Assembly: GCA_973895155.1 (NCBI GenBank)
Contig: OZ316894.1
Span: 17,576,563-17,640,562 of the forward strand
Direction: 5' to 3'
DNA length: 64,000 nt
Source: Marsupella aquatica
Taxonomy: Eukaryota > Plantae > Marchantiophyta
Positions within the stretch are counted from its first letter, which is position 1. Each line of letters begins with the position of its first letter. Shown here piece by piece: positions 979 through 55,910 of the stretch. The notes beneath the pieces were generated by a model. That model was given only the letters and a program-made list of their open reading frames with translations, made no database searches and had not been told where the DNA came from. Position numbers and translations under genes: made by a program.

Positions 979-1400
979 CACTACCTACACCTTTTGCAAA
1001 CTTGAAAGCATCGCAAACAACAAAGGAAATCGAAAAACAAAACTCGCCTTTGTGAAGTATCGCGCATCGCAATAGAATCGCGAACTGCAAAGCCCAAAGG
1101 TTCGCATCCGGTCTTTTGCAAGACCTTCGCAAGCCCTTTGCAACTTGCGACACGAATAGAATCGCAAAGGACTCACATTTAAGCAACTCCATGGGCATCG
1201 CGATAGGCTTGCGATAATAATCGATCAGTTCCATATTTGCGATTCCACGAGTTTGGTAATATTTTTGCGATATTCAATGAATGGTTGTTATGCCATGAAG
1301 ATCGCTTCGCATTTGTGTGAAGTTATGTGGTTCGCATAATGTTTGCGATACCTTTAGTATGGTAAATATGCGATTTGGGTTGTTCGCATATGTTTTGCAA
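971..1400. mobile_element. CACTA element terminus with subterminal repeats
   Basis: CACTAC at 971 and 979, followed by many direct and inverted copies of (A)TCGCA(A)/TTGCGA. The partner terminus is not seen. Confidence 0.6.
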
Positions 1401-1679
1401 GCTGTCTTGAGGCTAGGATTTAGATTTAGAGTTTTGAACTATGGTTGGGGTCTTGTTGTCCAACACGGAGAATGAGGTCTGAATCAAAATTGCTTTATAG
1501 AAAATTGATAGGTACACAGAAATTAGGGTTTCCTAAACCCTAAACCCTAGATGGGTGTCATATGACAAGCTAGGTCCCTATAAGACTACCCATATCAAAA
1601 CTATATACTACACTAAGTAAATGGGCATCCCATGGGCACTACACCACCAAGCTCTAGCACTAGTACATTTTGAGGCATT

Positions 1680-2100
1680 TTACCGATTGTATTTCCATCG
1701 GACGCCTTCTAGAAATCCGACGCGGAAATCTCACCTGTCTGATACCAAAAAGAATCGCATTTTCCGATATACTTTTTATCGGAAAATGACAATCGGAAAC
1801 TAATCAGAACTACCGATACCAAAACATTCGGGAGTTCCATCGTCTAAACTGTCGGGAAACACTATGTCCGATGCCCGCTTAATCGGATGTCTGTTCCACG
1901 CATTTTCTGTTAATGGAGGCGTTCGATTCTAGACCGATATTCTGGACATGGAAATGCCCGATTGTTTTAACATCGGAATTGTCCGATGTTATTTGGAACG
2001 GAAATTGCGATTATAGTAGAATCGGACTTTGCAATACGTTTGGGATGGAAAAGTACGATGATTGTGGCATCGGATATGGATCGGTATCTACCGGAAACTA
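1680..2100. repeat. CACTA subterminal repeat field (ATCGGA/TCCGAT)
   Basis: Many direct and inverted copies of the hexamer. The motif also clusters at ~4110-4210 and ~5480-5590. Confidence 0.8.
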
Positions 2101-2452
2101 TTTGGCTAGCTTGATTGGGCCTATTTTAAATGGGGGGCTAATTGGGGGTTTAATTGGGGTGCAATTTAATTCTTTAATTGAGTTTTTATCTAGGGTTTAG
2201 AGAGGTCATTTAGTCAAGAGAGACTATCAATTTTGATTGCACACTATGTACCTTGAAACCCGGGCATGACACGGCGTAACTATATCTTATATACAAAAAT
2301 GAAATATCCAGGGCAAAAGTACAAAAAATGGAGAACATCTCCATGCATAGTGCCAGCTATGCTAAAGGCTGGGCATATCAAATGGACATAATGCCCTCCA
2401 ACTGTCCACCTCGCTAGCCTGGTACTAGATCTATACATGTCTACCTAGTCCA

Positions 2453-5428
2453 CTATCCATACAAGCTATGTCGCGCCTTCCTCTTCTTCACACGGGAACG
2501 ACTAGGCTGCTCTGCTCTATGAGTCTCTACCGCTGACACACTAGGTAGCACATCATGGTCGTGGCTACCTGATCTGCCTCCATCGTCATGTGGATGAGGT
2601 GCAGAAGCAATCTCTGGTACTCCCCCACCTCCAGATGCGCCTGAACCATGGGAAGGCACTCCTTCCCCAACACAAGTGTGGAAAGAAGCCCCTCCAGCAC
2701 CACCACCACTACCCCCCTCAGGCCGAGTCTCACCTCCGCCACTATGACGGGAACCTCCCGATTGGGTGCCTACACCACCACTATGAATAGGAGATGGTGT
2801 GGGCACATGACCACCAAGGCCCCCCCCTGGACTGTCGCGAACCAGCTGGTACACTACCAGGGCTAGCCCTAAACTGACGAGGTGCAGCAACTCCACCACT
2901 ACCCCCCTCAGGGCGAGACTCACCTCCACCACTATGGCCGGAACCTCTAGACTGGATGCCTACACCACCACTATGAACAGGAGATGGTGTCGGCACATGA
3001 CCACCAAGGCCTCCCCCGGACTGTCGTGAACTAGCTGGTACACTACTAGGGCTAGCCCTAAACTGACGAGGTGCAACAACTCCACCACTACCCCCCTCAG
3101 GACGAGACTCACCTCCACCACTACGGCCGGAACCTCCAGACTGGATGCCTACACCACCACTATGAACAGGAGATGGTGTGGGCACATGACCACCAAGGCC
3201 TCCCTCGGACTGTCGTGAACCAGCTGGTACACTACCAGGGCCATCCCTAAACTGACGAGGTGCAACAACTCCACCACTACCCCCCTCAGGGCGAGACTCA
3301 CCTCCACCACTACGGCCGGAACCTCCTGACTGGCCAACGACACGACCAGTATGAACACCAGCCCGTTGTTGAGACCCACCTGGTACAACACCAGGGCCAG
3401 TCCTCACTCGACCACCTGTTGCGGCTAGAACTCCGGACTCACTACGAACCCCTCGTGACCTACTGTGGCTGGAACCCGGGACTCACTCCGTCCACTCCTA
3501 CCAGCTAATCTCTAATGAGAAGGAGGCATATCACCTACTCTACGCTCCATCCGGCGAGTGGAGCCACCTACACCCCGACCAGACTGGTGACGTCCACTCT
3601 CTCGGGGTCCTGATCGGCGCGCACCAGTAGAACCTCGTACTGGAGCCTCGGCCACACTCCCCTCTGAAGCACTATCATCCTCCGCATCCTCCTCGTCCTC
3701 CTCGTCCTCCTCCCCCTCACCATCCTCCTCACTCTCCAACTCGCCCCCTGACTCGATCATCCTGCACATAGTAACAATCTCCAATCCATATGTCATTCCG
3801 CAACATACGTACCAGCATGAAGCCATCTTTCAAATCATTCTAATATCCGCACTTACCGAGGCCAACATGTCGTCCATGTGAATCTTCAGTGCCCGAGCAC
3901 CATGCTCCTTTGCCAGCTCTCTCTCTCTGCCGGCAACAATGGTCGTCTGTGCTCTTTCTCCTACACACCCAAACCATATGCCACCCCCAATACTAAGGTC
4001 AATTATAGCGACCCTACCCTGGCCTAATTAAACACCTATATAAACCCTTCACCGTCAAAGACCCATAAGAACACTTAGCCGTTCATGCACAAACTATTCA
4101 AAAATTTGAATATGTCCGATACTAATAGAATCGGTACCCTCGACAGTTCCGATTCTTTTTTATTGTCCGATGTTGCATCCGATACTTAAAGGATCGGACT
4201 AGAATCGGACCTTACATGCCAAAAGCAAAAAAAACTAAGGCATGATTGAGCGACCTACGGGCATACAAAGACCTGTCCCAGGTTTGGAAGGGTTAGGCAT
4301 TCGTCAATTGGCCTCAGGTGATTAGGGAGGAGGAATGTTGCTGAAGGAATGCATGGAGAGGAGGGGAATGGAGCACTTACAAAATCGGCCTTGAGACGTT
4401 GTGATCCGCCTTGCCCCATTCTGTGAGTAACCTTTGGCCTCTTTGTTACTCTCAGCAGAGCTTTCATTAGCTAGGATGGTGGGTCTCCAAGCAGGGCTGA
4501 TTTTGCTGACCATTCTTCAAGTTCTTGATGCATGGGTGCAGTATTCACCATCTCTCCTTGTTTAATCTTCTTCTGAGCTGCTTGAATTTCAGCTTCCCAG
4601 TGTTGTGTGGCTTGCCAAGCTCGAACCTGCAACTCTTCTTCAAGCCAAGCACACCAAGCATCCTCAGGAATCTCACCAACTGGGCTTCCCCCTTTCCTGA
4701 TCACCTCCTCATCTAGTTTGCATTCAGCCAGGTACTTTCGCATCTTCTCTCGTACATGATTTTGCATGTCTGCAAGTGAGACTGAGATCTTTTTGTTTAA
4801 GAATTGATCGTCCACAAACGACCCATTTGAAAATCTCTCTTTGATTAGCTCTCAAAATTCAAAATCTCTCATCCTGCTTCTTCTTCCCCCAGTAGTCCAT
4901 CGGGCCAAAATGAGACCTCACAATCTGCCTAACTTGACTCCCAAACAAACGATAACTCCTGGAGAGTGGAGCACCTCCCTCATTCAGAAACAATTTTGGC
5001 CTCTTGGCCCTATCCTCTGCCTTCTTTCGTTCCTCCTGAATTCTCTATCGTTCTGCAGCCCGAGCCTCCCTCCTTAGGCTCTTCTCCTTTTGTCTTGGTG
5101 ATAGGGCTTCCACTGGCCTCTCTCTCTCGTCCTCCCTAGTGTTACGTTTCCTCTTCCTCTGCAATCTCTCCTCCTCAAGTCTGGCTTGGAAAGCTTTTTC
5201 TGCATCAGTGATGGCTACCTTCTGGGAGTTGTCGATCAGTCCTTGAGTGAGCTGAGCTACCTGCAATGCAACCTCCGGCGAGAGCCCCACCTTCTCCCTA
5301 AATAATTGAGCCATGACTTCACCATAGCTGCTTGATGGCCCGACACCATCTCCCATCCCTCTTGCATTCCCTCCCATCGCTACGAGCTCTGCAAAGGTAT
5401 CATGAAATGCTCCCAATGCTTTTCCCAA
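2453..5428 (-). pseudogene. TnpA-like second ORF of the CACTA element, multi-exon, with stops and a frameshift
   Basis: Collinear minus-strand ORF pieces: charged coiled coil (5045-5428), 4471-4815, KVTHRMGQGG followed by a GT donor (~4380), an acidic exon (3512-3765) and a Gly/Ser-rich repeat tail. Position and orientation fit the CACTA ORF2; family assignment is inference. Confidence 0.55.
2700..3330. repeat. 189-bp coding tandem repeat (~3.3 copies, 63-aa Gly/Ser/Pro-rich unit)
   Basis: CTCCACCACTACCCCCCTCAG recurs at 2891, 3080 and 3269 (period 189), with a partial copy at ~2700. Confidence 0.9.
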
Positions 5429-6405
5429 CTAGAGTGCCTTCGCACTTTAGTCGGGTGACCTAAAAACCCAAAATGCATAACGTCCGATACTTTCTGCATC
5501 GGAAACTCCGATTCTATGTCAATCGGACTTAGTATCGGACCCCTCCTCCAAAGTATCGGACTTAACCCTCCCAATGTATTTTCTGATGGTTTGTGAATCG
5601 CATGACCGTGGCATTTGGACTTTGGCATTTGGATCCCATGTATACTATAATGTCCCCCTTTATGTTAGTTGGGGGTTAATTATACTATATTGTGGGATTA
5701 TTAGGTGTGCGGCGCAAAACGGGCATATCAACGTACAGTTGCCGTGACAAAGCTAGCACACTATTTTTTGGTGGGTATGGATGATCATTGAATGTATGTA
5801 CCCAGATCTATTTTCAGTTTGATTTTAAATGATTCCCATTTTGACCATGAGGCAATGCTATATGCATGGTGCAACTTTTGGGGACTATAAGAAGTCACAA
5901 ATTAAATTAACACTCTAGTGCCGTTTTGTGCAGTTTTGTATTTTTTGTTTTTGGAGGGTCAGGTCGTTGCTTTTCCTTGGTTTTCTTAGTAGGGTTTATT
6001 TTTGCCAATGCATTATGCACAGCGAGAGTATGCGCATCCAAAAGGTATGACATATATGATCCTCCAAAATGTATTGGAAATATTTGACATGATATATGCG
6101 TTACTTGTGGGAGTTTATAATTGGACATCCAACTCGTCATTGATTTTTATTAATTTCATTAATTATTGGTTTGTTACTTAGGTTTGCATGTATGTGCAGG
6201 TTTTTTTGGATTGGCCTTAGCATATAGTCTAAGGCTTAGAGCCTAGTAGGCACTGTAGAGCGTGGATATCATTCAGGTACTAATTAAGTCCAACACTGAA
6301 AATTATTAACATACTATATATTTCCTGTTTGGGTTTACCTCAAGTTAGGGTGATGAATCAATCTTGCATTTTGGTAAAGACTTGTTTGTGTGTAATTGGC
6401 AGACA

Positions 6406-6636
6406 ATGTCGACTTCTGAGAGTTTAGATACAAATTCCGACTCTGACTTGTCTTCCTCTGAGGGGGACATTCCTCCTCCCCCTCAACAGCCTCGAGCACC
6501 CCCTCCATTAGGCCCTATTCCATGCTGGTGTCTTAGATGTAAAGGACTGGTGGTTCGTCAAGCGTGGTAGTCCATTGAACACATCGAAAACTATGGTCGA
6601 CATGAGGGTGATTTACCGGGATATTCAGCTCGCCAG
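6406..6636 (+). pseudogene. Exon 1 of the CACTA TnpD/SET locus (Cys/His transposase-associated motif)
   Basis: ATG at 6406; PCWCLRCKGLVVRQAW*SIEHIENYGRH with an in-frame TAG at 6568; phase-0 donor CAG|GT at 6636/6637. Confidence 0.6.
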
Positions 6637-6750
6637 GTATTGCTTGACATGAACTCCGCTATATACGATCAATACACTATCATAATAGTTGGCTGGTTTG
6701 AGACCTTTTAGGAGACAAGTATTAATTTTTGTTTGTTTATGATTGAATAG

Positions 6751-7713
6751 GTGCCTTGTAGGGCCCGTCCTCCATTGGTCTCTAGTCAACTATGGCATGA
6801 TGCATTCCTAGCTGGTGCTAGACAGTTGCTTGCATCATCAGTTGAAGACCCCAAGCAATCATGTACCCCCGCACATGTTCAAGCAGATGATGTTCATGAA
6901 CCCATAGTGGTAGAGTTGGGGCATGGTAGGGATGATGCACCGCCCCCTACTAGGGTTCTACGCACAAGACCACGTTCTCATAGACATCGACAACAGCATG
7001 TAGTTCTAGACACAAACCCATCCCATGAGCACTTTAGAAGGAGTGTTATGCCTCCACCAGGGGAGGAGTACATAGAAGTTGAAGGGAGGTTGGGCGTATC
7101 ATATGTGACGGGAAAGGCAATCAGTGTCTTCAAGGATTTTGACCCTGAGAGTTTTGCGATTCCTCGTGGCCTAGCCATTGATATCCCTGTACATATATGG
7201 GGTCAACAATGGATAGTGAAGGCATCGACCCTTGGCGGGGAGGTTGGATTAGGCTTATTTGCTTTGGAGGACATTGAGGTCCCTCCAAAGCCTTGGCGTC
7301 GTGGCTATGATGGGGAACACCTTTTCCCTTACATTGGGCCTGTGTATACATCCAAGAGTTGGAACATCCTCTTGCGCCAACATCCAGCTTGGGGGGTATA
7401 AGCATTGCAGATGGACTCAGACCCAGATGAGGTCCTAAGGAGGCCTTGGCATTGTAGGATGATTGATGGGGACCCTGTGCGTTCAGATAACATAGCTGGG
7501 TACATCAATAGTACACATGGTAGAGGGAGTGGACTCCAGCCTAATGTAGAGTGGGCTCAGATTTTTGGCCCACCCACTCCGCCTTACTATGTCACACATA
7601 TGGATGATCATGTTATGACAGTAGCCATACGGACCATTAGGGCGGGTGATGAGTTGTTTTGTGACTATGAATGGAACGCGCCCAAGATGGGCATTCGATC
7701 TGGCCACACTTAG
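6751..7713 (+). pseudogene. SET-domain (lysine methyltransferase) exon carried inside the CACTA element; one premature stop
   Basis: SET motifs in order: VKASTL..GLGLFALEDI, FPYIG, IDG..NIAGYINS, PNV, AIRTIRAGDELFCDY. The two ORF halves are in frame across a single TAA at 7399-7401. Acceptor TAG ends at 6750. Confidence 0.8.
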
Positions 7714-7822
7714 CACATATGTGTATTCCCCATTTTTGAAGTAATATAAGAATATTGTAGTTTTTTTAGGAACCCATGGGCTAACTCAAATGTATATATC
7801 TGTTTTGTGCGTTGTATGATAG

Positions 7823-8840
7823 AATGCATATGTTGAGCCGGATGTTGGGGTGTTACCACGAGCTATGCGCCAACACCTTGTGCAGGCCATGGAAGATTGG
7901 CGACATACCTCTCTACCACCAGATGGCGATCCGGATGTTCCAGAGCAGGAACCAGATGCCTCCCAATCAAGAGTTGATGAAGATAGGGCCATGGATGACT
8001 TGATGCACCAATTCTATGACATAGAGGATGGTGATCATGACATGGCTGATGGGGAGAACATTGAGGTCCCACTTCCACATCAAGAAGGTTCAAGGAGTTC
8101 AGCCTCCAAACAGTGGGAGGAAGCACGTCAACATGCGCAAACTCGGATATTTGATGGATCACGCTTGTCTCGTCTTTCAGCAATAATATTGTTGTTGAAC
8201 TTGCAGCAAAGACATGGAGCAAGCAACCTACTTCTTGATGATCTCTTTCGGACATTGCATGATTGTATCTTGCCAGAAGGAAACAACTTGCCAGACTCTT
8301 GGAAAGAGGCAAAGAAGGTGTTGATCGAAGTCCATAGGTCTGCAGTACGAAGTCATACATGCTTGCGTGAATGATTGTGTTCTATTTAGAGGCACTTATA
8401 AAGATGCAACGTCATGTCCTACATGTGAGAAGCCGAGGTATCGTGAGGACATGTTGACAGGAAAAGTTCCTCAGAAGGTCATGAGGTACTTTCCTCTTAT
8501 ACCTTGTTTGCGCCACCAATATAGATGTGCTGAGTTGGCTGAGTGTATGGTTTGGCATTCCCAAAATCGCTCAGATATGAGTTCACAGCCACCCACCATG
8601 CGCATGATGGTTGACTCCCCTGCAAACAAGTTTGTGGAGGAGAGATGGGGTGACTTCCGAACTGACCCACATCATGTTCACCTAGGATTGGCAGCGGATG
8701 GCATCAGCCCATTTGCACTAGCAGGTAAGGCCCAACCATATTCACTATGGCCAGTGGTCCTTACTAATTACAACATCCCTCCATGGATGTCCATGAAGAA
8801 GGGTCATTTGCTCCTTTCCATGATTATCCCTGGTCCTAAG
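7823..8840 (+). pseudogene. CACTA TnpD transposase, N-terminal half (Transposase_21/tnp2)
   Basis: NNLPDSWKEAKK, HACVNDCVLF..CPTC..PRY, KVMRYFPL, HLGLAADG, YSLWPVVLTNYNIPPW..LLSMIIPGPK. Frameshift near 8330; breaks off after GPK. Confidence 0.9.
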
Positions 8841-9217
8841 CCAATAATCCATGCCCCATATCCATTTTGTTGCACCTCCAGCGAAGCTCCATCCCAGACC
8901 TGCAATTGTAAAACCTTGCAGGAGCACTCAATTTGAGGACACCCGTACACAGAACCCCGACGCAAAATGATGAAAGAACTGGGGAACAAAGTGGGCAGAG
9001 GATACATTTTCATCAGAGAAGAATGCCACATAAACTGGTGTTTTGGTAATTGCGCATCAAAACCCAGCAACCAGACAACAGTCAGCACATGAAGCAATCT
9101 AGAGACTCATTATGAGCCTTTGTACATTGCTGCCGGGGTCATTTCCTCTGCCCCCAAATTTTTTTCCTAACTCTGACCAGCTTTCAATGAACTCCACTTT
9201 TGGGTGGGATCTGTCTG

Positions 9218-9572
9218 GAGGGATATGCTCAATAGACCCCCTCCAGGAGAAACTTTACTTGATCAGCCCCCTCCAAACTTTTTTGCCCCAATCAGCCCCC
9301 TCATTATGGCTCGTACCCTTTTCTCCCGTGTAAGCCAGTTTCCCCCGTATAAAGGCCATACTGCACAGTTGGGAGCCATGCCACCATGCAGGGTCGCCTC
9401 CCGCAGTCGACCATGAGACTCCGCTGCAGTAGGGCGCAACTACGCGGTTTTGCGTTCTCGCACTATGGTCCCTTATGAGTGTGAATACATTGTGGTTTAT
9501 GTATTCAACAAAATTTCTGTTTTAGGGCGCACATTGTCGGGGCGCGGTTTAGGGTCAAGCGCGAGAGTCATT
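9218..9572 (+). repeat. MULE left TIR
   Basis: Reverse complement of ~21727-22086. Confidence 0.93.
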
Positions 9573-9824
9573 TGTCGAGGGTGGGATCGACATTTTTTGT
9601 TGTTTTACGGAGGGGACTGAGGCATCGTTCATGGAGGTGAGGCGTCGTTTGCTGCTGGCGGCTGGCCATTTTGGGGAGGTTCATGCTTTGATCGTGTGCA
9701 CATTTCATTGATCGATGCCAAAGGAGAGCTTGAGGTTTGAGTTGCGGCCCACTGCTAGGATCGAGTAGTGTTCATTCACCCCATTCTCCGAGATTTCTTT
9801 CACATTGTAGCGCCTGCCAGATTG

Positions 9825-11130
9825 TTGGTGGGTTGTTTTGGTTTGGTGAGAGTGTCTCCCTTTGTTGTTCTTCAATTCCACAGGAGGATTGTCCGCCCGC
9901 CAATGTAGCCCAAGAAACTGTTTAGTCCTGCATACCATAACATGAATGACGTCTCCTGCATTATCTTATCTATCTGGTCGTAAGTTTTTCTACATTGTTC
10001 AGTTCTGCATTGTTCAGATTAGTTCAGATCATTTGCAGAGTCTCCTTGTTCTTGTGCATTTTTGTCACCATGAAATCCATGTCCTCTGGTTCTGCTGCAT
10101 AGTTTGAATACGTGGATAACAATGTAGGGCTAGGTTGCATTTGGGAGTTCAATCCTGTTCTTGAATTTGTGGCTTCAGCGGGGGCTTCAGTTTCCTCTCA
10201 GGATTTTGTGGTTGCCTACGAGCTTTAGGCAAAGTGGACTTCACGACAGGGATTAATCTGCATCCCACTTGAACCCGCATGTCTTTGTTTCTTGGTCAAA
10301 GCACTAGGTATGATTTCAGCTCTTTTTGCCAAAGTATAAATCTTGTAGCACCATTGTTTGCAAAGTGCTGAAGAAGTTATTTCTGAATGCTTCATGACGT
10401 GCATTGCATCCTGAATTTTACAAACGTTGTCTAAATGTCGACAAGTTTGAATGTTGTGCATGTTTCGAATACCATGACATGAATGTCTTTGAGTTCTGCT
10501 GCCCTGCTTGAATACCAAGACATTCGTGTGTTCTAGTTTTGCTTATATCTGAACTTGTTATCTTCTTGGTTTGCAAACATTGATGGGTTGTTTTGTTTTG
10601 GTGAGAGTATTTTCCTCTGTTGTTCTTTCAGAGGAGGATTGTCCGTCAATGTAGCCCAAGATACTGTTTCCTGCATTTTTTTGCATCGTGTTGATGCGCA
10701 GAATACCATTACCTGAATGTCTCTTGCATTCTGCAATTTTTGATCACCATCACATCCATGTCTTCCGGTTCTGGCACTACATAGTTCCAATATTACGTGG
10801 ATAACAGTGTAGGGATTGTTTCCAATGGCAGTTGAATCCTATCCTTGAATTTGTGAATGAAGTTTCCTCTCTAGATTTTGTGGTTGCCTGCAAGCTCTAG
10901 GCAAAGTGGACTTCATGACAGGGATTGATCTGCGTCTGACTTGAAGGGGGAGATTCTCGGTCGAAGCACTAGGTATGACTGACTGCATCCTGACTTTACA
11001 AACATTGTCTGCATGTCGACGAATGTTGGAGGTGCATGTTTTGAATACCATGACATGGATGTTTGCGAGTTCTTCTATTCTCTTTGAATACCATGACATT
11101 CGTGTCTTCTAAATTTGCTTATCTGTTGAA
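9825..11130. repeat. Diverged tandem duplication (~750-bp and ~550-bp copies) in the MULE leader
   Basis: GGAGGATTGTCCG..CAATGTAGCCCAAGA, TACGTGGATAACA and TAGGCAAAGTGGACTTCA each occur in both ~9830-10550 and ~10585-11130. Confidence 0.75.
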
Positions 11131-11263
11131 GTCGTCGGCATGAGTGTAGGGACCGCTCTGCTTCCATTAAGGAGTGGAAAGCAATACAGGCTGAAGGTCA
11201 AGGTCATAGGCTGGAGAGGTTGGGTTCAATTTTGAGCCCAACCAAGGTTCATGCTCAGTTTCC

Positions 11264-14200
11264 ATGGCACCACGAATGAGAAGAATTCGGGTAGCAGAGG
11301 AAGAGAATCACTTCTGACATCGTGTCGATGCTGAAGGCAAGCATGTGTTTGTCTGCATAGCTGGTGATCACAAGCCTCGATCATTTTCTTCCTTTGCTGG
11401 TTTCCAGACCCACATGGACGTCACACACAAGTTGGAGTTGCCACCTGCATTACTGGAGGCGGGCAAACCTTGGTTGTTCTCAAAATCCGACTTCTCCACT
11501 CGGATTGCCAAGAAACATAAGGCCCCTGGGCCAAATGTGAGGAAGGACAACAATCAGGCCTCTTGGAACCGGCTTCGATCCACTGTGCGACTTCGGTGGA
11601 GACAGACTAAGTTGCGGAAGAAGACAATGCTAAAGAAGAAGTATGGTGTTGCTGCAGATGAGCCGCTTGTTCCTGCAAAATTGTTGCTTATTCGTGTCAT
11701 CAAGGAAGTGCACATACGTGCAGGGCAGGCTAATGGTTGGTCATCCTTGTTGGATGACAGTGTGTACGAGATGTTGCAAGACTCTGTGTCAGCTGCTGCA
11801 ATTTCTCCTATTTTGTCTCGCTGGGTTGCTTCAATCCAAGCTTTGCCGGTACTCCTACCTAGAGATCGTAAGTTGCAGGCACTTCAATTAGATTGTAGTG
11901 TCCTGCCATGCATTTTCCCCCGGGCAGATGTGGAGGTGCAACCTCCCGAGCTGATGCAATTTGATACAATTCGAGAGGCTCTCATTGCAGATGCCTTGAA
12001 TTACTTGACTCAAAAAAGAGCGCTTCTGCAGTGGAAGCATGGCCCCAAAGAAGTGGACTTCGATGCTGCATACCAAGATTACAAGGAGTGGAAAGAAGAG
12101 CAAAAGCCTGTCAGCATAGCCACAGCCACTAACAATTTGCTACAGGAATACAAAGGTTGGGGCATGACCACTGAAGCTGCACGAATAGAGGTATGACCTT
12201 TTTATTTTACTTCCTGCGATCTTTGCTTGTTGTTTGTACATTCCATTCTCATCTTGTCCCAACCATGTGCAGGCTGGACTAAATGAAGAGTGGGAGGACA
12301 CTTCTGACAATAGTGACTATGAGCCTGGGCCTGAGAACTGGGGTCTGTTGCTAAATGATGCTGATCAACAGCCAGATGAGCCAGACGTTGTATCTGAACC
12401 TGTCCTCAATACTTCAGTTGAGGACCCGCCTCTTGTACAAGATCCTATTCAGGTTCCTTCTCATGTTCAGGATGATGAAGACAGTGATCATCAGAATCCT
12501 TCTCATGTTGAGGATGTTGACCATCTTATTGAGCATCCTGTTCATGATCCTATTCAGGATCCTATTGACCATCCTGTTCAGGATGATGAAGACAATAATC
12601 ATCAAAATCCTTCTCATGTTGAGGATTTAGACCATCTTATTGAGCATCCTGTTCATGATCCTATTCAGGGTCCTATTGACCATCCTGTTCAGGATCCCAT
12701 TGACAATCCTATTCAGGATGTTTATGAACAAGGAATCAGCTTTTCACAACAGCGTCACTTGGTTTCAAGCCTCCAAAATATTCTTTACGCCTATGGAGAG
12801 GGAGAGGACGACTACCCCCTCCAGGTCAGTCTTTGTTTCTTTGCTTCAATTACTTTTGGAATTTCTTTGCAAATTGTGAATACATGAGCCTCATTGTATT
12901 CGGATGCTCCTTGTGTTCATTGCAGGAAGGAGTAGTATCGGAGACTATCTTGGAGTTCGTAGCACCACCAACCCCTACACCTGAGACTCTACTCCCAGAC
13001 TTCATAGCGCCAGTCGCAGCAACAGCACCAGCCCCTGTATCGTGTATATTAGTCTCGGAGTCCTTACCACCACTTGCACCAGCACCACCAGCCATTGCAC
13101 CACAGATTGTACTATTAGAGTCGGTACCAGTAGCAGCAGCACGACCACCACCAGCAGCCCCTGCACCACAGATTGTAAGTCTCTAAAGTGCAAACTTGGA
13201 AGTCATTCAATTGCAATCTAGTCTGAATACTTAAACCCCAATGTCTTTTCACTCCCCTAAGCATTCATTTCATATATTGTAGGGACAAAGACGAAGGGGA
13301 AGGGGTGTACCACTGGAGTCCCCATCCCCAGTACAGAAAGTAGCACCATCCCCTCCAATGTCAACAAACCCCTTCCAGGTTTGCCTTTGTGTTTTTTGTA
13401 AAAACATATGTTTGCAATGCTTTGCAATGTCTGAATACAGCTGCCTCATTGTCTTCGCCGTGCACTGCAATTTCTTCATTCTAGAGACGGAGCGGAAGGA
13501 CAAGTGGAGGGGTCGTAGCAGTGGAATCACCAGCACCAGCCCTCGCACCACGGATTGTAAGTCTCAGAAGTGCTTACTTGGAATTCGTGCAATTGCAATG
13601 TAGTCTAAATACTTCAACCCCAATGTCTTTTCACTCCCAGGTTTGCCTTTGTGTTTTCGGTAAAAACATTTGTTTCCAATGCTTTGCAATGTCTGAATAC
13701 ATCTGCCTCATTGTCTTTGGTGTGCACTGCAATGTCTTCATTCTAGAGACGAAGCGGAAGGGCTCCTGGAGGGGTTGTAGCAGTGGAATCACCAGCACCA
13801 GCCCTCGCACCACAGATTGTAAGTCTCAAAAGCGCTTACTTGGAAGTTTGAATACATCACCCTAATTGTCTTCTGCGTGCACTACAATTTCTTCATTCTA
13901 GCCCATGCACGGGAAAGAAATTTGATATAGGTCAGCCTGGTTTGCCTTCCTGTACAAGGCCACATTCCTTTCTATTCATATTACTTTGCATGGGTTAAAT
14001 ACACAACCCTCGGTGTATTCAAGTCACTTAATGATATTCTCCATTGTAGAGAGGAAGTAAAAGGGGAAGGGGTGTATCAGCGGTGCCCCCAAAACCAGTA
14101 GCAGCACCAGCACCGACAAGCAACCCCTCCCAGGTATGTCTTGATGTACCAGGCTAATTTCCTTATCAAACTGCTTTGCAAGGAGTGAATACACAACCCT

Positions 14201-15225
14201 CACTGTCTTCTATGTCAATTAATAATTTTGTTCATTGTAGGGAGGAAGACAAAGGGGAAGGGATGTGTCAGCAATGTCCTCAGCACCAGTGGCACTAGCA
14301 ATCCCAGTACCAGCTACCAACCCCTCCAAGGTACGCCTTTGTGTCTTAGGCCACATAATTGAATTCCTTCTCATCAGCGGCGTCCAATTGTTGAGTAATG
14401 TGAATACCTCTTTGTCAATGTCTTTTGATGTTGCTTTGGATTGTAGGAAGGGCAACAACGGGAAAAGGCAAGCAAAAGGCGAAAAGGAAACCGAAATTTG
14501 GTGGAGCAATCCCTTGCACCTGCCCCAACCCCTATCCCAACAAATGAACACTCAGCCCCTGTCCCTGTAACAACACCAACACATGCACCTGCCGGTATCC
14601 CTGGACCACCACTAGCACATGCCCCTACACCAGGACCAGCAGAAGCACCAGCCCCTATACCAGTGCCAACACCAGGCCCTGCACCGGCTACGAACTCCTC
14701 ACAGGTGCAGCAGCAAAATTCCTCTACTTCATTGTGGAATGTGAATACCTCTTTGTCCATGTATTCTAATGTCTTTGTGGGTTGTAGGTACCACAAGGAG
14801 GAGCTGCTTTGTCCTTAGTACCTGTTCCTATCTCAAGGAAGAGGAAGGAGGCCTCTAAATCAAGCAAGGGTATGAGCCAGGCATTGCAGGTTGTTCCTCT
14901 ATTGGCAGTCAACCCCAAAACAAAAGTTGTGTTTTTGCACCCCGAAGATGATGACTTAGCAACATCAGAAGTTGAAGACAGAGTGAGAGGCAAGCCAAAG
15001 CGAAGTAAAATCGCGACAAGTAGAGGCGGGGGGCAAGGGAGAGGAAGAGGAGCACAGTCTTCTACTCAACCAACTCCCTTGCATGAAATCCAGCTAGATG
15101 ATGGTGACAATGTAGACACATTTGGGCCATCACAACTTTTGCATGATTCCCAAATGACTGCTTCACAAGATACATTCAGGGAGGTTATTGGCCAACTCCC
15201 GCACCCTTCCCAGTATGCTGACTGA
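11264..15225 (+). pseudogene. MULE cargo gene of unknown function, convergent with the transposase; multi-exon
   Basis: ATG at 11264 is in frame with the 11345-12190 ORF across one TGA (11315). Has an N-terminal C-x4-H..H-x4-H Zn-finger-like motif and a basic helical region, then an acidic repeat exon and several Pro/Ala-rich exons with GT-AG boundaries. Confidence 0.55.
12460..12720. repeat. 111-bp (37-aa) coding duplication built partly from 12-bp subunits
   Basis: QDDED..HQNPSHVED.DHLIEHPVHDPIQ.PIDHPV occurs twice. Confidence 0.85.
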
Positions 15226-15494
15226 GCGTGGACACCCTTCCCGTGTGGTACTAAGCCATTTTTGTGGTAGCTTCAATGGTCTTTAGATGCAATGTAGCTT
15301 GAGGTAGCTTCAAATACAATGTAGCTTCATTGGAAGGCAAGGAGGCCCGTGATACATCTACATTGCAAGGTCACAACTCGACTTGCAACTTGTACTGGAA
15401 ACATTTATGAATAAAAAGCAAGTTGCATTCACTGTGTTCTGATGTATAAAAGTTATTCATTCTGCTGGATACTACCTTCAGTTTGCACCTTCAG

Positions 15495-15875
15495 TTTTGG
15501 AAGACATTGTCCACATTGTCGACAGGATATTTCGCTTGAAGAAGCCATTTGAGCAGGGGTAAATGACCGTGGATGTTGTGGGTTTTGGAAGACATTGTCC
15601 ATATAGTCTTCGCACCACACTTAGCCATTTTTCCAACGACAGGATATTTTGCTTGAAGAAGCCATTTGAGCAGGGGTAAATGGTGGATGTTGTGAGTTTT
15701 GGAAGACATTGTCCATATAGTCTTCGCACCACACTTAGCCATTTTTCCAACGACAGGATATTTTGCTTGAAGAAGCCATTTGAGCAGGGGTAAATGGTGG
15801 ATGTTGTGAGTTTTGGAAGACATTGTCCATATAGTCTTCGCACCACACTTAGCCATTTTTCCAACGGCAGGATAT
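15495..15875. repeat. 114-bp tandem repeat (~3 copies) between the convergent MULE genes
   Basis: TTTTGGAAGACATTGTCC at 15583, 15697 and 15811, plus a partial unit at 15495. Confidence 0.9.
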
Positions 15876-16104
15876 TCGATTCTGCTTCAAGAAGAAATTT
15901 GAGCGGGGGTACGTAAATGGCCAACACTAGTGGTTTCACACAAGATGCACATGACAACTGCAAAATAGTTTCAAAATTTGTAGAACATCTCTAAATTGTT
16001 GGAGTACAATGCTGTTGCAGACTTCAATGTCTGCAACTAAATCAAAATTGCAATTGCTACTTCCTGTGAGCTATTATTTGAACTTGTTACCACTGTGGTG
16101 TAAA

Positions 16105-16836
16105 CTAAGTCAAGAGCTCATTGCTACAAAATACTTCCCCACAATAGGTGCACCTAAATACTTCATGCCCAGACTCATCTACTCCCAGCAACTCAACATT
16201 AACTCTATGACCATCTGCTTTGATAGGAGCCCTCCATTGTGCACCCATTGCACTAAATTGTCGTTGAAGCCATGCCTCCGCCTCAGAATGGGACCTAAAA
16301 GACTTGTGACTAGCTCCACTGAATCCGCTCACCTGACATTCTGCCTCCTCCCAAGTACGATATATTCCAGGACTGCGCCCCCTAGCAATGGCATACCATT
16401 TCTTCTTTGAGGTAGAGCCTAGATCACAATTGTATGGAAGAGCAATTGACTTAGAGCGAGAGGACAAAGTCTGTGATTGTAATTTCACCCTTGTGGCAGG
16501 CTGAGTTTGCGCAACGTCAACCAATTGTGCTTGTGAGGCTGACAAAGATGGACCTGCATTAGCACCCTGGCGCCGAGCCAATACAGGTTTTGGTGGGCCA
16601 ACAACAGCCACTACAGGGGAATCGTGACCCTCTGATTTTGATGGCACTATACTTTGAGCAAGGGGAGGCAGCCTATCTCGATTCCACACTGAAGACAAAC
16701 ACAAAATCCGTTCCAACATGCGATGGAGGAAGAAGAGTAGTGCACTCAAACCTGCAAATACGGTCCATATGGCGAACCCCAATGCCCAAAACAACTGAAC
16801 TACAAAACCAACACTGCATTCGTTGAACTTTGCCAT
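16105..16836 (-). CDS. MULE cargo protein with an RNase H1 N-terminal hybrid-binding (caulimovirus viroplasmin-like) domain
   Basis: KWYAIARGRSPGIYRTWEEAECQVSGFSGASHKSFRSHSEAEAWL matches the hybrid-binding-domain consensus. Also has a hydrophobic N-terminus and a C-terminal CTYC motif. Confidence 0.75.
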   Translation of the reverse strand: MAKFNECSVGFVVQLFWALGFAIWTVFAGLSALLFFLHRMLERILCLSSVWNRDRLPPLAQSIVPSKSEGHDSPVVAVVGPPKPVLARRQGANAGPSLSASQAQLVDVAQTQPATRVKLQSQTLSSRSKSIALPYNCDLGSTSKKKWYAIARGRSPGIYRTWEEAECQVSGFSGASHKSFRSHSEAEAWLQRQFSAMGAQWRAPIKADGHRVNVELLGVDESGHEVFRCTYCGEVFCSNELLT

Positions 16837-16859
16837 TGCCAAATGGCAATCCTATCCTT

Positions 16860-16990
16860 GGCGCTCTCGTTGTCGCTCTCCTGTCCCTGGTGCTCTTGCT
16901 CTCTCTGGCGCTCTCGCTCTCTCTGGCGCTCTCGCTCTCTCTGGCACTCTCGCTCTCTCTGGCGCTCTCGCTCTCTCTGGCGCTCTCGGG
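16860..16990. repeat. 18-bp CT-rich minisatellite (CTCTCTGGCGCTCTCGCT)n
   Basis: About 5-6 tandem copies visible directly. Confidence 0.9.
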
Positions 16991-17409
16991 CGCTGCACAA
17001 TCTACTCAGACCCCTCTCTCTGGCGCTGCAGTGCTGTCCTGTCCGTCCTCTACTACACTGGTCTCCTAAGACCTCCTCCCTTTGTTGTCACTCACGTGGA
17101 CGACTTCAAAGACTCCGCTTTAGTCCGCTCGCAAAACGCGCACATTCTCCATGGAACACTCAATGTCGACCAACGGTCCCGCACGCCAATATCATTGCGG
17201 AAGTAGATTCAAATTTGAAGACATTATGGTCAATGTCTTCAATAACAATGAAGGAAGTTAAGAAGACAACATGGTCGCTGTCTTCAAGTGCAAGGATGGA
17301 AGATAAACGGAAAGACAACATGAATATGTTGTATTCATCAGAGAATAATGGTGGAAAAAAGTGACAAGAGTCTGTTTTGATGCACAACCAAAGTTCAGTA
17401 AATAAGTAA

Positions 17410-20400
17410 CTAGTAAGGTTCAGTAATATCAACATGATATTGTGACCCAAATCCCTGACACTCTATTGCAGCCTCATTGGCCAATTCCATGCACCTATCA
17501 ATGAAAGCTTGTGGCAATTGTTGTTCACTATTTTGGACAATGCTCTGGATTGGTCCTGTGCCTGCTGTTGGTGCGGTCGATTCAATACTATATTCAGTCT
17601 GCGGTAGTTGGTCTTCCCAAGGAAAGGGTGACACATATGGGTGCTCCAAATTGACTGCATCACCATTATCCACCTGCATATGAAGGCAATTTTAAAATTT
17701 GTCCCTAGCATGAGACCACACATGCATGAAGCCCACAAGTAATGATATATACTTGTAAGAAGACTGTTAATGTTGGAATCCTTACTCTTGCTGGATCTAT
17801 TGGCGTTACACTATGGACTTTATCACAAGATCTTCGGTTATGTCCAACCTGCCCACACTTACTGCACCTGCACTTCCCAGTGTTAGGCCCCGCTTTCTTT
17901 GCCCTCGATTGAACAAGAACAATTGGAAGTCCAACAATAGTGTTTGCTGTTGAAAAAGGTTCCACCCTGTTTGGATCATCATCTAGTGGATATCTCAAGA
18001 ACAGTTGTCCAAGGGAGTCAATCACTGATTCTTCGCCTTCTCCAAGAGCCCTAGGTGGATGCCTCCCTCCACGACCCTGTTCGATGCGGACCATTCTATG
18101 TCTGCCCCTTTTCACAGCAGCCACAGGAGCAACACAATTTGGACTTGGCATTAAGTCTGATACAATAAAGCTAGGTAAAACATTGTCATACAAGGCCCTA
18201 ATTGAAGCAGTCCGCCAACATTTGTGAAAATGAGCAGAAAAATTTCTGCCTTCCTGGTCATCCCAAGCCATTATATGCTCACATGGCCACACCATCTCTT
18301 GCAGCTCCCAACAAGTGCAACATTTCTTTGGTGACAGTGACACTAGATACTCCTCACTTTGGGATGTAGTTTGAACCTTGGCTGTGGACGCACCATCATC
18401 AAACACCTGAGCATATGAAAACTTGGATATAATTACTAAACTATTCAAATAAAGAATACATTCATACTAGTGTATTTTAATTCAACACCGAGCTATTAAG
18501 AAGACATTGATGTTACAGTATATACAGAACACGTAGCTAGTAATGCATACACAGACCAGGCATGAAGATTACCTGCCATTGACCAAACGTCTTGAGATTC
18601 TTGTTGTACCTGAGCAGGGCTGGAATAGTGAGTACTTCCTGTCTCGTCAACGTAGCTACTTTCCTTTCTTTAAACTTTTGCTGAACATATACCCACATGC
18701 GCTCCATCAACTTGCAAGGAGCAAATTCGCGTAAGGGGAGTAAGCCTGAATTTGCTTGCTCAGCAGGGTTGCTTGTAACCTTTGCCATGCGGGGAAGTGG
18801 AAAGGCATGCCTGGCATAAAGTTTTGCATCAAAACTTCTGATGTAGTCTACAGCATTTGCATTCTCATATGCCTTGACGGACTCTGCCAGTCGCTTCAAA
18901 CATGCTTCAAATCTGATACAGGTGCACAGGGAAAACATTGATGTTAATGTATACAATCATGTCATACACAGAGAAAACATTTGCGTGAGTGATATGTACT
19001 TCACATTCTGTATTCGAGGAGAGGTAATATAATTATTGTATTGAACACTGAGTATGCGGTGTATACATAAGAAGTCAAATGTATGTAGAATCAAAGCAAT
19101 GAAGGTTTTTGGACTTACTGTCTTTCATCGTTGGCATATATGCATCTTGTAAAAATATCTGCTGCTGCCTTGCCATGCCTGTTCTTGACATTAGCTCTCA
19201 GGTGGTTTGCACATGCTGCATGTATCTTACCTGGCCACACATAACTCACAGCGGCAAGTAGGCCTTTCTGTCGGTCTGATATGAGTGGCATGTGAGGCAA
19301 TTCAATGCCGTAGAGTGATCTATCTACCAATTCCAGAAACCAGATCCAATTATCTGTGTTCTCAACTGGAGCTACTGCGTAACATAGAATCAATCCTTGG
19401 CCATTTCCATCCAAACATGTAGCTAAGAACAGTTGAGTGGGGTACTTCCTGTTCTTTGCATGACATGCATCAAGAGAGATGAGAGGTTGAATGTAGGTAC
19501 ATGCTTTTCGTGTAGCTGATGGGCAAATGAATGCTCGACAGAAAATGTTGGAGTTTTCCATTGGGGACCAGACTGCCACTGCACCAGGATCAATCTCTCT
19601 CACCCTGGCAATTAATGTCAGAATCATTTGAAATGTGTCTTCCTGCCCACCAAGGTGCAGATCCCGTACATAGTCTTTTGCTCGCCACATTTGGTGGTAA
19701 GTGCTGTTCTTTTTATAATCCCCTTGAAATCCACAGAGTAGTTCTTTGACCGGCACCTTCAGATTTCTACACACTCTAGGCGCCAGTGTGTCTCCTAACC
19801 ACACTGCCTTTTGTGTTGGGCCCCTCCACTTGTGTTTAGATGCTGGACAATTGTGTTTCAGCTCACACACAGTAATGATATGAGCCCCACTGTGAGCTTG
19901 CCTGTGACATCGGACCCTGAATGGGCAGTAGGCTGAACAATCAAAACCATCTTCATCGTACTCTGGCGGGGGCCTAAACCTAGAAAACTCCCCGCATACT
20001 CCTGTGGTAGATATCTTCCTGACTTTTACCGTGCCAGGGGCATGTGACCCAGGTAGCCACACACTGCTATGCTGCACTACTGTGCGTGGTTTCTTTGCCA
20101 TCGTTGTGTTCCTCTGGAGACAGTTTGGATCCAGAGGTCCAAGGGGTGCACGAACCTCCTATTGCAATCCACACAGAACATATTCATGTTATTGTATATG
20201 GAAACACAGAAGACAGTGGTGTCATTGTATACAAAATACACACCACAATGGGGATGTTTATATGAAACATAGAAGACACTCATGACGTCGTATACAAAAC
20301 ATTGATGGTAAAATGCAAAGAAGACATTCCGGTTTAGGTATACCTGTGGAGCATTTGTGAGAACGATTGCTCCAGACTGGTTTGTTGATCTTGCCATCTG

Positions 20401-21332
20401 TTGAATAGCAATTTGAAACTCACGGTCTTCCATCTGCAATGGCAGCACAAACATACCATGCATCAAAACACAGAGTGACAAGTATTACATTTCTAACCCT
20501 TCAAAAAAACCACAATGATATAGGTATGGACTCTTCAAAAGCTTTACCTCTTCCGCTGTCAATAATGGTTCTGCATAGGCATTGTGTGTCCTTCGTGTCC
20601 CCCTTGGTTCGGATGTCATTCCTCTGTCACGGAACCCACTATACTCACCGTAACGACTGTTATAGTGCCAATCTAATTCATGTTCATGTTCATCATCCAA
20701 TTCATGGATATATAGTGAATCTTCATCTTCTGAACTATCACTACATTCAAAACTGTCTGGCCCAGGTCTGATGTCACCACTTGACTTCCTTTCATGTCGA
20801 TGAGCAATCTTACTAAATCGGCAAACCCTTGTTCGAAAATTGGGGGAGGTTTTAAGTCTATACACTACTCGGCCATGCATGACAGCCCACGAGTCCAAAC
20901 ATCTATCAAATTCATCAAAATTGTTAAAATGCTCGCCCAGATGAATGCGAGCCGCCTCTGCTTCCACTGCCAAGAGCATTGTAGAATACATAATGAAGAA
21001 CGTCTATGGGAGCTCTCCACTTCAACAGTGCAAAACTTATGATTCATACGGGAGCAACTTCATACTTAAGCCAAACAAATCCTCCAAATACTAACTTGAA
21101 GCACAGTAGATTCACCTTCTTCGGGACTCTTCCCATCCAGGATTGATTTCAGATTTTTCAGATGTCTTCGTGTTGTTCCCCGCCTTGCTCTTTGTGGTGA
21201 TTGCCTGTCAGAATCGGGAATGTCCACCTCACAGACATCCCCTCGACGCCAAAGATTGATGTCACTTACATCATTTGCCATCCTGTACTTCAATGTGCAT
21301 ATGAGTACTGTGCAGAGGTTAGTCATGTCCAT
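17410..21332 (-). CDS. Mutator (MURA/MuDR-like) transposase, multi-exon; outer exon limits approximate
   Basis: MULE domain ISLDACH..LFLATCLDGNGQ..ENTDNWIWFL..ISDRQKGL..CANHL, then TSNPAEQAN, SWIM finger CTCWELQEMVWPCEH and zinc knuckle CSKCGQVGHNRRSC. GT-AG introns lie between the ORF pieces. Confidence 0.9.
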
Positions 21333-21726
21333 TTAACGTAAAGCTCAAAAACATTTACTAAGCCACATGCGAAAGGGCTCTGCAGCCCATGAACTGACGT
21401 CATTTCCTGACAGTGTTTGTGCCTTCAATTTACACATTCTAACATCTGCACAGTAGTACCTTGTTTTCCTCTGCAATCGATGGTGGCAGGTGCGTGCGCC
21501 GTGCGCCGTGCGCCTCGTGGAAAGTTGAGTGTACTTGTTATCGAGCATGGACAAAAGTTGGGATGGGAGGATATTAAAAAATTATGGAGATCAGTTTACA
21601 AATAGAATACAATCATGTCAATGTATTCGCATTCGCGTAACATAACCCTAATGTTGATCGTGGCGGCGTGGATGGGCAAATGCCCGATTTTGAGTTCTAA
21701 TTACGAGGTCCCGTTGCCTGATTACT

Positions 21727-22086
21727 GCGCGCTTGACCCTAAACCACCCCGACAATGTGCGCCCCGACAATGTGCGCCCTAAACAGAAATTTTGTTGAAG
21801 ACATAAACCACGAAGTATTCACGCTCATAAGGGACCATAGTGCGAGAACGCAAAACCGCGTAGTTGCAGCCCTACTGCAGCGGAGTCTCATGGTCGACTG
21901 CGGGAGGCGACCCTGCGTGGTGGCATGGCTCCCAACTGTGCAGTATGGCCTTTACACGGGGGAAATTGGCTTACACGGGATAAAAGGGTACGGGCCATAA
22001 TGAGGGGGCTGATTGGGGCAAAAAAGTTTGGAGGGGGCTGATCAAGTAAAGTTTCTCCTGGAGGGGGTCTATTGAGCATATCCCTC
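21727..22086 (-). repeat. MULE right TIR
   Basis: Reverse complement of 9218-~9572, with a small internal duplication (CCCCGACAATGTGCG twice). Confidence 0.93.
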
Positions 22087-28445: not shown

Positions 28446-28660
28446 ATCTCCCCCTTGACTCTGGTCTAGGGGAGGGTAAAGACTGCTACCAATATGATTG
28501 CTCAACGGGAAGTTCTAGAAAGAAAAACCAAACCGGTTTTTCCCTCTTTATACGAGAGTAGACCAGAACTAAGTCGTAGCATATACAAGGAATGAGCAAG
28601 AGCATATCTCAGTATCTACACAAATGTTAAGTAACCCTAATCGTGAGGCAATTGCAGAAC

Positions 28661-29755
28661 CTACAACACATCACGGTGTCTAGAAAAACTCTCCAAATGA
28701 ATCATTTTGGTAAAAGCGTCAGCCGGGTTGAGTTTACCGTCAATCTTGACTAGCTCAAACATATTATCAGACATAGTCTGCCTGATAAAATGGTACCTGA
28801 CGTTGATGTGCTTCACTTTGCTATCCATCACCTGGTTCACAACAAGGTGGAGCACACTTTGACTATCACAATGGAGCTTCACATTCCCCTATGGCAATCC
28901 CATCTCAGTGATCAGTCTATCCAACCAAATCGCTTCCTTTGCTGCTTCCGCTGTTGCAACATACTCCACTTCTGTAGTAGACTGAGCAATACACTTCTCC
29001 AAAGTAGACCTTCAACTTATGCATCCACCACCAAGTGTGAACACATAACCTGTTGATGACCTCCTCCGATTCAGATCCTATGCATAGTCAGCATCTGTAC
29101 ATAGCCCATCAATGATCTAGCACTATTAACATGTGCATCAAACAATAGACCATGATTCATGGTACCCTTCAAATACCGAATAATCCACTTCATTGCTTCC
29201 CAATCTACCTTTCCTAGATTCGACATGTACCTGCTCACCTTGCCCATAGCTATGGCAAGATCAGGTCTAGTGCAAGTCATCAAATACATGAGACTCTCCA
29301 CTGCCTTGTCATAAGGAACTTTGACATCAGCCCCTTCTCTGTCTCATCCGTAGGACAAAAAGCTGATGACAACTTGAAATATGGAGCCAACGGGGTACTT
29401 ATTGGCTTGCTATCCCCCATGTTAAACCTTGTAATTACCTTCCTTGCATAACTGCCCTGCGTCAATCATAGCTTGGTAGCCTCCAAGTCCCTAGTGATCT
29501 CTATACCCAAAATCCTCTTAGCTGGCCCTAACTCTTTCATCTTAAATTCTGCACTTAGCAGTGCCTTGAGCTTAACAATCTCAGACCTATCCTTGGCCGC
29601 AATAAGCATGTCATCCACATAAAGTACTAAAACAATGAATCCAAAGACAACATTCTTCACTGATTTAAGATACACACAAGGATCAAACACACTCCTATGA
29701 AAGTCTTGTGCACGAATCCAATCATCAAACCGCTTATTCCATTGTCTTGGTGACT
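28661..29755 (-). pseudogene. Ty1/Copia pol fragment (RT and RNase H), degenerate and 5'-truncated
   Basis: QSPRQWNKRFD, DPCVY, LYVDDMLI, SLMYLMTCTRPDL, LHCDSQS, KHINVRYHFIR, NPADAFTK; several frameshifts. Confidence 0.92.
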
Positions 29756-31488: not shown

Positions 31489-31747
31489 TTTAGTAAGAAC
31501 TCTCTTTAACACTGGGCAAATCATATCAGGATCTTTCAAGGCCTGGATGTGTCTCCACTCTATTAATTTCATGTCCTCATAAGGCAATTTGGCATCTCCG
31601 GACTTAGAGACTTTCTTCTTGCCCTTGTCTCCTTTTTGACCTTTGATCTCACACATCTCCCACTTGTCACAAATCTGCCTCACAAATGACCACACAGGAT
31701 CTTGTCGGAATGCCAACTGAAATAGGTTATCATTGGCATTAAGAACC

Positions 31748-47099: not shown

Positions 47100-55910
<8,811 letters not shown>

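Follow-up and report, generated by a model that had tools for sequence, protein, structure and literature searches.

Can a plant DNA transposon carry, inside its own transposase gene, an enzyme that writes on chromatin? This question is raised by a locus in a stretch of 64,000 nucleotides (nt) from the liverwort Marsupella aquatica (contig OZ316894.1, forward-strand positions 17,576,563 to 17,640,562; hereafter the window, numbered from its first letter), a piece of plant DNA rich in nested transposons. An earlier note on this DNA had described a CACTA element in which a SET domain lies between a Cys/His first exon and the core of the TnpD transposase, and had proposed that the first exon might be spliced to either of them. 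The reading towards which we lean on balance is that the locus belongs to an old bryophyte CACTA/EnSpm family with a SET exon between the first coding exon and the transposase body, that this exon is alternatively spliced in intact copies, and that it encodes a predicted lysine methyltransferase that would help the element to resist silencing.

A SET exon inside a decayed TnpD-type transposase gene

The Cys/His exon-SET-TnpD layout is real. Coding exon 1 (231 nt) ends in phase 0 at 6636 with a GT donor, and AG acceptors are located directly before 6751 (SET) and 7823 (TnpD), both in phase 0 with their frames; these frames and splice signals, already pointed out in the earlier note, were borne out on checking. 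What had been omitted is the damage: exon 1 is interrupted by an in-frame TAG (6568-6570), the SET exon by an in-frame TAA (7399-7401), and TnpD shifts frame near 8325, so that the window copy can make neither product. It is a dead copy for both, its transposase being as decayed as its SET exon. The SET exon is built of about 100 low-complexity residues, a family-specific N-terminal flank and a SET domain that stops a few residues past the last Tyr. Translated with X at the single in-frame stop, it matches PF00856 above the cut-off (29.6 versus 22.4 bits; E 9.5e-7) in the hidden Markov model search that had been suggested as a check. The SET motif set had been called complete: the four motifs do share one frame (7246-7263, 7324-7338, 7489-7512 and 7651-7668), but the His of the third is replaced by Ser in 55 of the 57 homologues with a residue there.

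We assign the element to CACTA/EnSpm by the sequence of its TnpD-type transposase (PF02992), not by its ends. The PF02992 match at 8325-8933 (E 2.7e-21) covers profile positions 4-82, and the TnpD core of the window is 66-82% identical to TnpD homologues. The element extends beyond the limits first given to it, 6406 to 8840, as the remainder of its transposase is encoded by the opposite strand at 41110-40217: the PF02992 pieces are consecutive across both halves (4-82 followed by 91-133 with E 1.8e-9, 126-158 and 158-199), and the alignment of homologous transposases runs along the plus strand to about 8845 and resumes five residues on, along the minus strand from about 41100. Both breakpoints of 8845-41110 show short similar bases, and in the simplest reading this is probably a single transposase gene that a 32-kb inversion has divided, or else a misassembly. 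Two Asp motifs and a CxxC are visible in the TnpD pieces, and the final Glu of the DDE triad was not located in this gene, the 3' half of which is truncated at 40217 by the end of another element, one with a PF01555 methylase gene (see below). No match to DUF4218 was found in 150 of the 325 window open reading frames (ORFs) of at least 62 amino acids, those from 1-51.5 kb outside the interior of a Mutator-like element.

The SET family and its predicted activity

The SET sequence is not confined to this copy, as the earlier note had allowed it might be. A word-based search found 21 homologues among 380 candidates (38-69% identical), and when 1.84 billion representatives were searched with a profile, 166 members of this divergent family came up at E ≤ 0.001, 150 of them listed; among the matches listed, P0171 looks spurious and P0191 is a conventional tandem SET protein. 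Among 30 proteins looked up, the organism-named members come from Calypogeia fissa, Riccia sorocarpa, Adiantum nelumboides and Ginkgo biloba, and the others are metagenome or Logan calls; the named relatives nearest to both parts of the window element are those of C. fissa (69% identity for the SET exon, about 76% for the transposase). With short patterns, no close relative was found in IMG/VR (0 of 75 candidate stretches) or in GTDB genomes (0 of 93), and JGI metagenomes yielded two loci from 176 stretches, both short; the 58-sequence SET alignment is too diverse for pattern scans. Among the look-alikes in the ESM Atlas are one SET cluster from streptophytes, another from viruses and a bacterial cluster that bears the name 'Type III effector protein'; these are leads only and do not identify a donor. 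Host-class flanking domains (SRA, pre-SET/CXC, AWS, PHD, post-SET) were present in none of 62 homologues scanned at E ≤ 0.01, nor did any of the 62 match PF01555, and for the host classes SUVH, E(z), ASH1, TRX and ATXR5/6 the closest host-type PDB sequence reached only E 4e-4 over about 25 residues. Divergent members from Calypogeia, Ginkgo and Adiantum (P0102, P0199, P0115, P0206, P0158 and P0165) have other N-termini, with Cys/His motifs in P0102, and may sit in other transposons or be domesticated.

By profile and predicted fold, the product is a SET domain protein. Its AlphaFold model (predicted local distance difference test, pLDDT, 87; predicted template modelling score, pTM, 0.84) matches SET domains in Foldseek, with 290 PDB chains at E ≤ 0.001, and in VIA-align, with Z 11.6-8.0, root-mean-square deviation (rmsd) 2.2-3.8 Å and 107-145 residues aligned (best match: Z 11.6, rmsd 2.9 Å, 125 residues). 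When the profile of 58 family sequences was compared with PDB sequences, LegAS4 came out best, across the whole domain (E 8e-7). The active-site positions described for LegAS4 include, as four of six, Tyr135, Tyr159, Asn181 and Tyr220 (bioRxiv 10.64898/2026.05.29.728679). Mapped onto the family columns by counting along the profile alignment, Tyr135 (the YxG Tyr) corresponds to Tyr or Phe in all 58 sequences (37 Tyr, 21 Phe), Tyr159 to Tyr in 55 of 58, Asn181 to Asn in 51 of 57 and Tyr220 to Tyr in 53 of 55; the premature TAA of the window copy falls on the Tyr159 column. The GxG glycines are kept in 53/57 and 57/58 sequences, the YxG Gly in 56/58 and the final Tyr of ELxxDY in 53/55, while the Phe/Tyr-switch position holds small residues. 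A small residue at this switch would permit di- or trimethylation. Methyltransferase activity is plausible in view of these residues and the model, and we consider methylation of lysines dependent on S-adenosylmethionine (SAM) to be fairly likely for the product of intact copies.

On the other side of the balance are the loss of the NH His, the Phe found at the YxG Tyr in 21 of the 58 homologues and the absence of a post-SET cysteine cluster from the product; moreover, no substrate can be named because the structural matches are tied across SET classes (Set1, SET8, PRC2, SET7/9, NSD2, PRDM5 and LegAS4 at Z 11.6-10.4). A SET product that is conserved but writes no histone mark, binding methyl-lysine instead or methylating some protein other than a histone, for instance the transposase or a silencing factor of the host, would agree with both active-site deviations, with the large family-specific insertions and N-terminal flank, and with the finding that no host subfamily stands out. 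We hold this to be unlikely, if far from negligible, as the last catalytic Tyr, the SAM-binding Asn and the GxG motif are nearly invariant, and the best sequence match, itself an active histone methyltransferase, deviates at NH in the same way: LegAS4 likewise lacks the NH His, yet methylates lysine 14 of histone H3 (bioRxiv 10.64898/2026.05.29.728679). Stand-alone SET proteins (LegAS4/RomA, SETD8, SET7/9, Set1/MLL, PRDM and giant-virus SET) have the SET fold and active-site tyrosines in common with the window family, and LegAS4 also the Asn-Leu/Ile-x-x-Tyr-Ile-Asn segment without His, but identity is 15-27% and the window family has no ankyrin, pre-SET or post-SET Cys modules.

A first exon with two candidate partners

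Exon 1 looks like the N-terminal module of the transposase itself (a PF13963-like transposase-associated domain), and the SET exon like an insert in the first intron of the transposase gene, because a profile of six homologous first exons, run against 12,780 six-frame fragments of the window, matches only exon 1 (E 1e-11) and a second CACTA-type exon at 491-1072 (E 7e-9) that in turn matches PF13963 (E 1.6e-5, below cut-off). The transposase-associated domain is N-terminal in plant TnpD proteins. Since exon 1 resembles it, one exon with two alternative partners is likely, and the production of two alternative mRNAs from one upstream promoter is, judging from the sequence, quite probable. The join of exon 1 to SET recurs elsewhere: the C. 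fissa gene model CAM6082608.1 has it at the predicted junction, and locus L001, 50% identical, repeats the exon 1-intron-SET layout with a phase-0 intron at the same place. Its SET stops three codons past the last Tyr, and most homologues end a few residues past it; the transposase of L001 is not visible because the locus ends six bases past a candidate acceptor. The second CACTA-type first exon (491-1075) is cut near 970-1000 by a TCGCA/TGCGA repeat cluster (1001-1500), and neither SET nor TnpD follows directly.

Several points weigh against this reading. Exon 1 itself has no direct match to PF13963, its link to this family being transitive; agreement of phase is expected by chance about one time in three per acceptor, hence is weak alone; a second AG at 7769, which has the better pyrimidine tract, would lead into a stop four codons on; every exon join comes from gene prediction; and no TnpD is seen in 205 of the 212 family proteins (a redundant set with many members from short contigs), mostly single-ORF calls on short contigs.

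Other points bear on the possibility of two tandem genes, one made of exon 1 and SET and the other making TnpD from its own start (the in-frame ATG at 7865, or a different leader), an arrangement that would involve no alternative splicing. Separately transcribed accessory genes are described for some Arabidopsis Spm elements (bioRxiv 10.64898/2026.08.24.746577). TnpD models of C. fissa and of metagenomes begin inside the TnpD exon, and a separate start is possible because the C. fissa model begins at the ATG corresponding to 7865; conservation of the codons ahead of this ATG also failed to appear, in that a profile of seven homologues did not find 7823. We nevertheless regard tandem genes as improbable: exon 1 is homologous to a domain that is N-terminal in plant TnpD, only 109 nt lie between the SET stop and the TnpD acceptor, which is scant space for a promoter, and 14 open in-frame codons precede the ATG. 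More improbable still is a single exon 1-SET-TnpD fusion as the working product, a transposon-borne chimera like SETMAR. Seven of the 212 proteins are gene models that join SET to TnpD, always with TnpD 3' of the SET part and never before it, and three of them are named R. sorocarpa models, but the predicted joins are inconsistent and several cut SET before the last Tyr or mid-domain. In the window copy no GT occurs between the last SET Tyr and the SET stop, so that a fusion retaining the whole SET domain is unavailable to it, and the ends of the SET reading frames of L001 and most homologues close behind that Tyr likewise argue against a fusion.

Long-term selection and linkage of SET to TnpD

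The SET-TnpD order that we interpret as one alternatively spliced gene recurs in other lineages. Members linked to TnpD are spread over two or more distinct supported clades of a quick, midpoint-rooted tree with long branches (129 rows, each covering 125 or more profile positions), which was used only for well-supported clades, and an exon-1-like motif lies upstream of SET in 15 of the 212 family proteins. Two metagenome SET proteins and TnpD homologues are on contigs of equal size (5790 and 5627), which suggests that the two members of each pair may be adjacent. Across eight pairs, SET and TnpD identities co-vary with a Spearman coefficient of 0.69 over 19 of 28 comparisons, which are not independent; nine were dropped for a SET overlap below 60 residues. 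The association reaches what we take to be both main liverwort lineages.

The SET family is under long-term purifying selection between lineages, a statement that does not address the recent history of the window copy. Over 204 codons the SET exons of the window and L001 are identical at 50% of amino acids and at 0.59, 0.69 and 0.37 of first, second and third codon positions, with 15 of 42 four-fold sites identical, and the comparison with locus L002 gave the same codon-position pattern. A recently captured host SET fragment that decays neutrally, one of the outcomes by which the earlier note would have given up its proposal, could account for the stop in the SET exon of the window copy but, unless the homologues should turn out to be a single host gene family, is extremely improbable given this selection (second positions 69% and third positions 37% identical), the intact homologues at 36-69% identity, the absence of host-type SET architecture from the 62 homologues scanned and the equally decayed transposase of the window copy.

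Proposed mechanism and its significance

In the mechanism that we propose, transcription from one promoter near 5.9 kb would produce a pre-mRNA in which exon 1 follows short leader exons; splicing to the near acceptor would yield the Cys/His-SET protein, and skipping to the far acceptor the transposase. The SET protein would methylate lysines, most likely those of histones at the element, to which it would be brought by the N-terminal module that it has in common with the transposase, and the resulting mark would help the element to resist silencing. The parts of this scheme differ in strength: a histone target at or near the element, with recruitment through the common module, is a tentative suggestion that falls somewhat short of an even chance, and it is rather doubtful that the scheme holds in its full extent. 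In that form, bryophyte CACTA elements would for hundreds of millions of years have made a histone methyltransferase of their own by alternative splicing of the transposase gene; the enzyme would be directed to the element and write a histone mark that counters silencing by the host, and the choice of splice site would toggle the element between 'write chromatin' and 'jump'.

The transposon anti-silencing factors that have been shown to work in plants, VANC and TnpA, are DNA-binding proteins that lower DNA methylation. In liverworts, many transposons are reported to carry trimethylated lysine 27 of histone H3 (bioRxiv 10.1101/2022.10.24.513474). Transposon SET genes have been noted in oomycetes and red algae, in passages that report no assay of them, and a compact conserved SET enzyme with intact copies in liverworts makes the notion of a transposon writing its own histone marks testable. 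In addition, many models annotated as 'SET domain-containing' in Riccia and Calypogeia, and perhaps in fern and Ginkgo, may be transposon cargo and not host genes.

Comparison with known transposon systems

The earlier note had not recognised SET as standard CACTA cargo. For land plants, a search of the open-access literature turned up no paper on a SET exon within a TnpD/CACTA gene (Repbase Reports and preprint supplements lay outside the search), but the idea is less new than the note held because SET cargo in transposons, EnSpm/CACTA elements included, has already been published. In red-algal Plavaka elements of the EnSpm/CACTA superfamily, the accessory gene PAG2 has a SET domain of the PF00856 type (bioRxiv 10.1101/2025.02.11.637652). 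As described there, Plavaka is likewise a DNA transposon of the CACTA superfamily that has long carried SET, proposed to act as a chromatin modulator and similarly unassayed, but PAG2 is a separate gene in which an N6-adenine DNA methylase is fused to SET, beside PAG1, PAG3 and the Plavaka transposase, whereas in the window one compact exon encodes the SET domain, lies within a TnpD gene of the plant type (PF02992) and is joined to a transposase-associated Cys/His exon; the comparison is one of architecture, not of SET sequence. SET genes are also reported in HarbingerS and Phytophthora MuDR elements (PMC12730594) and in Helitrons (bioRxiv 10.1101/2025.02.11.637652), which resemble the window element as DNA transposons with a SET lysine methyltransferase-like cargo gene but belong to other superfamilies and hosts (oomycetes), and the passages on them describe no shared-exon arrangement. 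As to HarbingerS, the SET of the window is linked to PF02992 and not to a Harbinger transposase.

The closest parallel for the proposed splicing is En/Spm of maize and Arabidopsis, in which TnpD and TnpA are made from one gene by alternative splicing (bioRxiv 10.64898/2026.08.24.746577), TnpA being a sequence-specific anti-silencing factor (PMC4158355; bioRxiv 10.64898/2026.08.24.746577). The two systems would be alike in that one locus with the same transposase family gives rise, by alternative splicing, to a transposase and an accessory chromatin regulator. They differ in that TnpA is a DNA-binding regulator without SET (the term 'SET domain' occurs 0 times in the main text of the preprint), while the alternative product here would be an enzyme, its exon lying upstream of the transposase core. 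On the proposed reading, the SET product would be an accessory product of the TnpA type, but an enzyme and not a DNA-binding regulator.

Leader exons, upstream repeats and other elements in the window

The features of the element are collected in Table 1. Candidate leader exon A resembles the same position in L001 with a local score of 44 that none of 500 shuffles reached, in a region picked after the alignment had been seen. The similarity to L001 was not significant for leader exon B (score reached by 94 of 500 shuffles), nor for intron 1 and the 3' spacer (363 and 160 of 500). The palindromic repeats of the CCGAT-N9-ATCGG type are confined to the region upstream of the SET/TnpD unit, with all 10 matches in the window falling within 1147-5526 (whole-window shuffles: mean 2.8, maximum 6). 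A right end matching the candidate left end at 1658 was not found within the 64-kb window, in which the best other match has 12 of 16 bases. Between the repeat clusters, at 2456-5428 on the minus strand, are ORF pieces that include an acidic stretch and four tandem repeats of 189 nt (2631-3387); these pieces have no informative Pfam match and may represent a second accessory gene, transcribed divergently within the element.

Table 1. Positions of features assigned, or assigned as candidates, to the SET/TnpD element
Feature	Positions	Strand	Remarks
Candidate left CACTA end	1658-2025	+	CACTAG, then cluster of palindromic CCGAT-N9-ATCGG-type subterminal repeats; membership in the SET element is a candidate only
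Further copies of the same palindromic repeat	4116-5526	.	At 4116, 4179, 5484 and 5508; last two just 5' of the SET/TnpD transcription unit
Candidate 5' leader exon A	5990-6044	+	GT donor at 6045; start uncertain; similar to same position in L001
Candidate 5' leader exon B	6200-6276	+	AG before 6200, GT at 6277; L001 similarity by eye only
Coding exon 1	6406-6636	+	Ser/Pro-rich start, CxCxxC...H..YGR motif, phase-0 donor, TAG 6568-6570
Intron 1	6637-6750	+	GT-AG, 114 nt; spliced out in the C. fissa model of the closest homologue
SET exon	6751-7713	+	320 codons, terminal exon; PF00856 match, predicted SET fold, TAA 7399-7401
TnpD 5' half	7823-8845	+	Acidic linker, Cys-rich region, PF02992 start, first Asp at 8697; frameshift near 8325; ends about 8845
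TnpD 3' half	40217-41110	-	Inverted relative to 5' half; PF02992 positions 91-199; intron 40959-40818; further frameshifts

The methylase element that truncates TnpD comprises 29756-38600 on the minus strand and 38599-40217, and contains a gene of several exons with an N6/N4 DNA methylase domain at its end (PF01555, E 1.4e-8); the 3' 1.6 kb of the element are duplicated in inverted orientation with 98-99% identity. It recalls Plavaka PAG2/PAG3, and we considered whether its methylase gene (30077-37633) could be part of the SET element as a mirror of PAG2. This was rejected: the same unit end abuts the transposase at 40217 and a Copia reverse transcriptase (RT) fragment at 29756, and because of this the methylase element appears to be a separate insertion. 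Its upstream ORF (36305-37135), without Pfam or PDB match, has a motif that we take to be ParB-like, and on the plus strand (32064-35354) it harbours an intact, GC-rich ORF of 1096 codons with a long coiled-coil and no clear Pfam family. The adjoining Copia RT fragment (28600-29755, minus strand; PF07727) is decayed.

A Mutator-like element of about 12.9 kb (9218-22086) has inverted ends of about 330-350 nt (93%). Its minus strand encodes a MULE transposase and a SWIM finger, and its cargo ORFs include an RNase H1 N-terminal domain (PF01693, E 1.9e-19) at 16108-16851. At 25030-26685 lies a 551-codon ORF for an ABC1 atypical kinase (PF03109, E 1.3e-47), whose lack of introns may point to a retrocopy or horizontal transfer. 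A dispersed family of 25-65-nt repeats, with 9-10 copies and no ORF match, occupies 42000-46250, and exons at 51900-55910 resemble, by eye, a receptor kinase gene.

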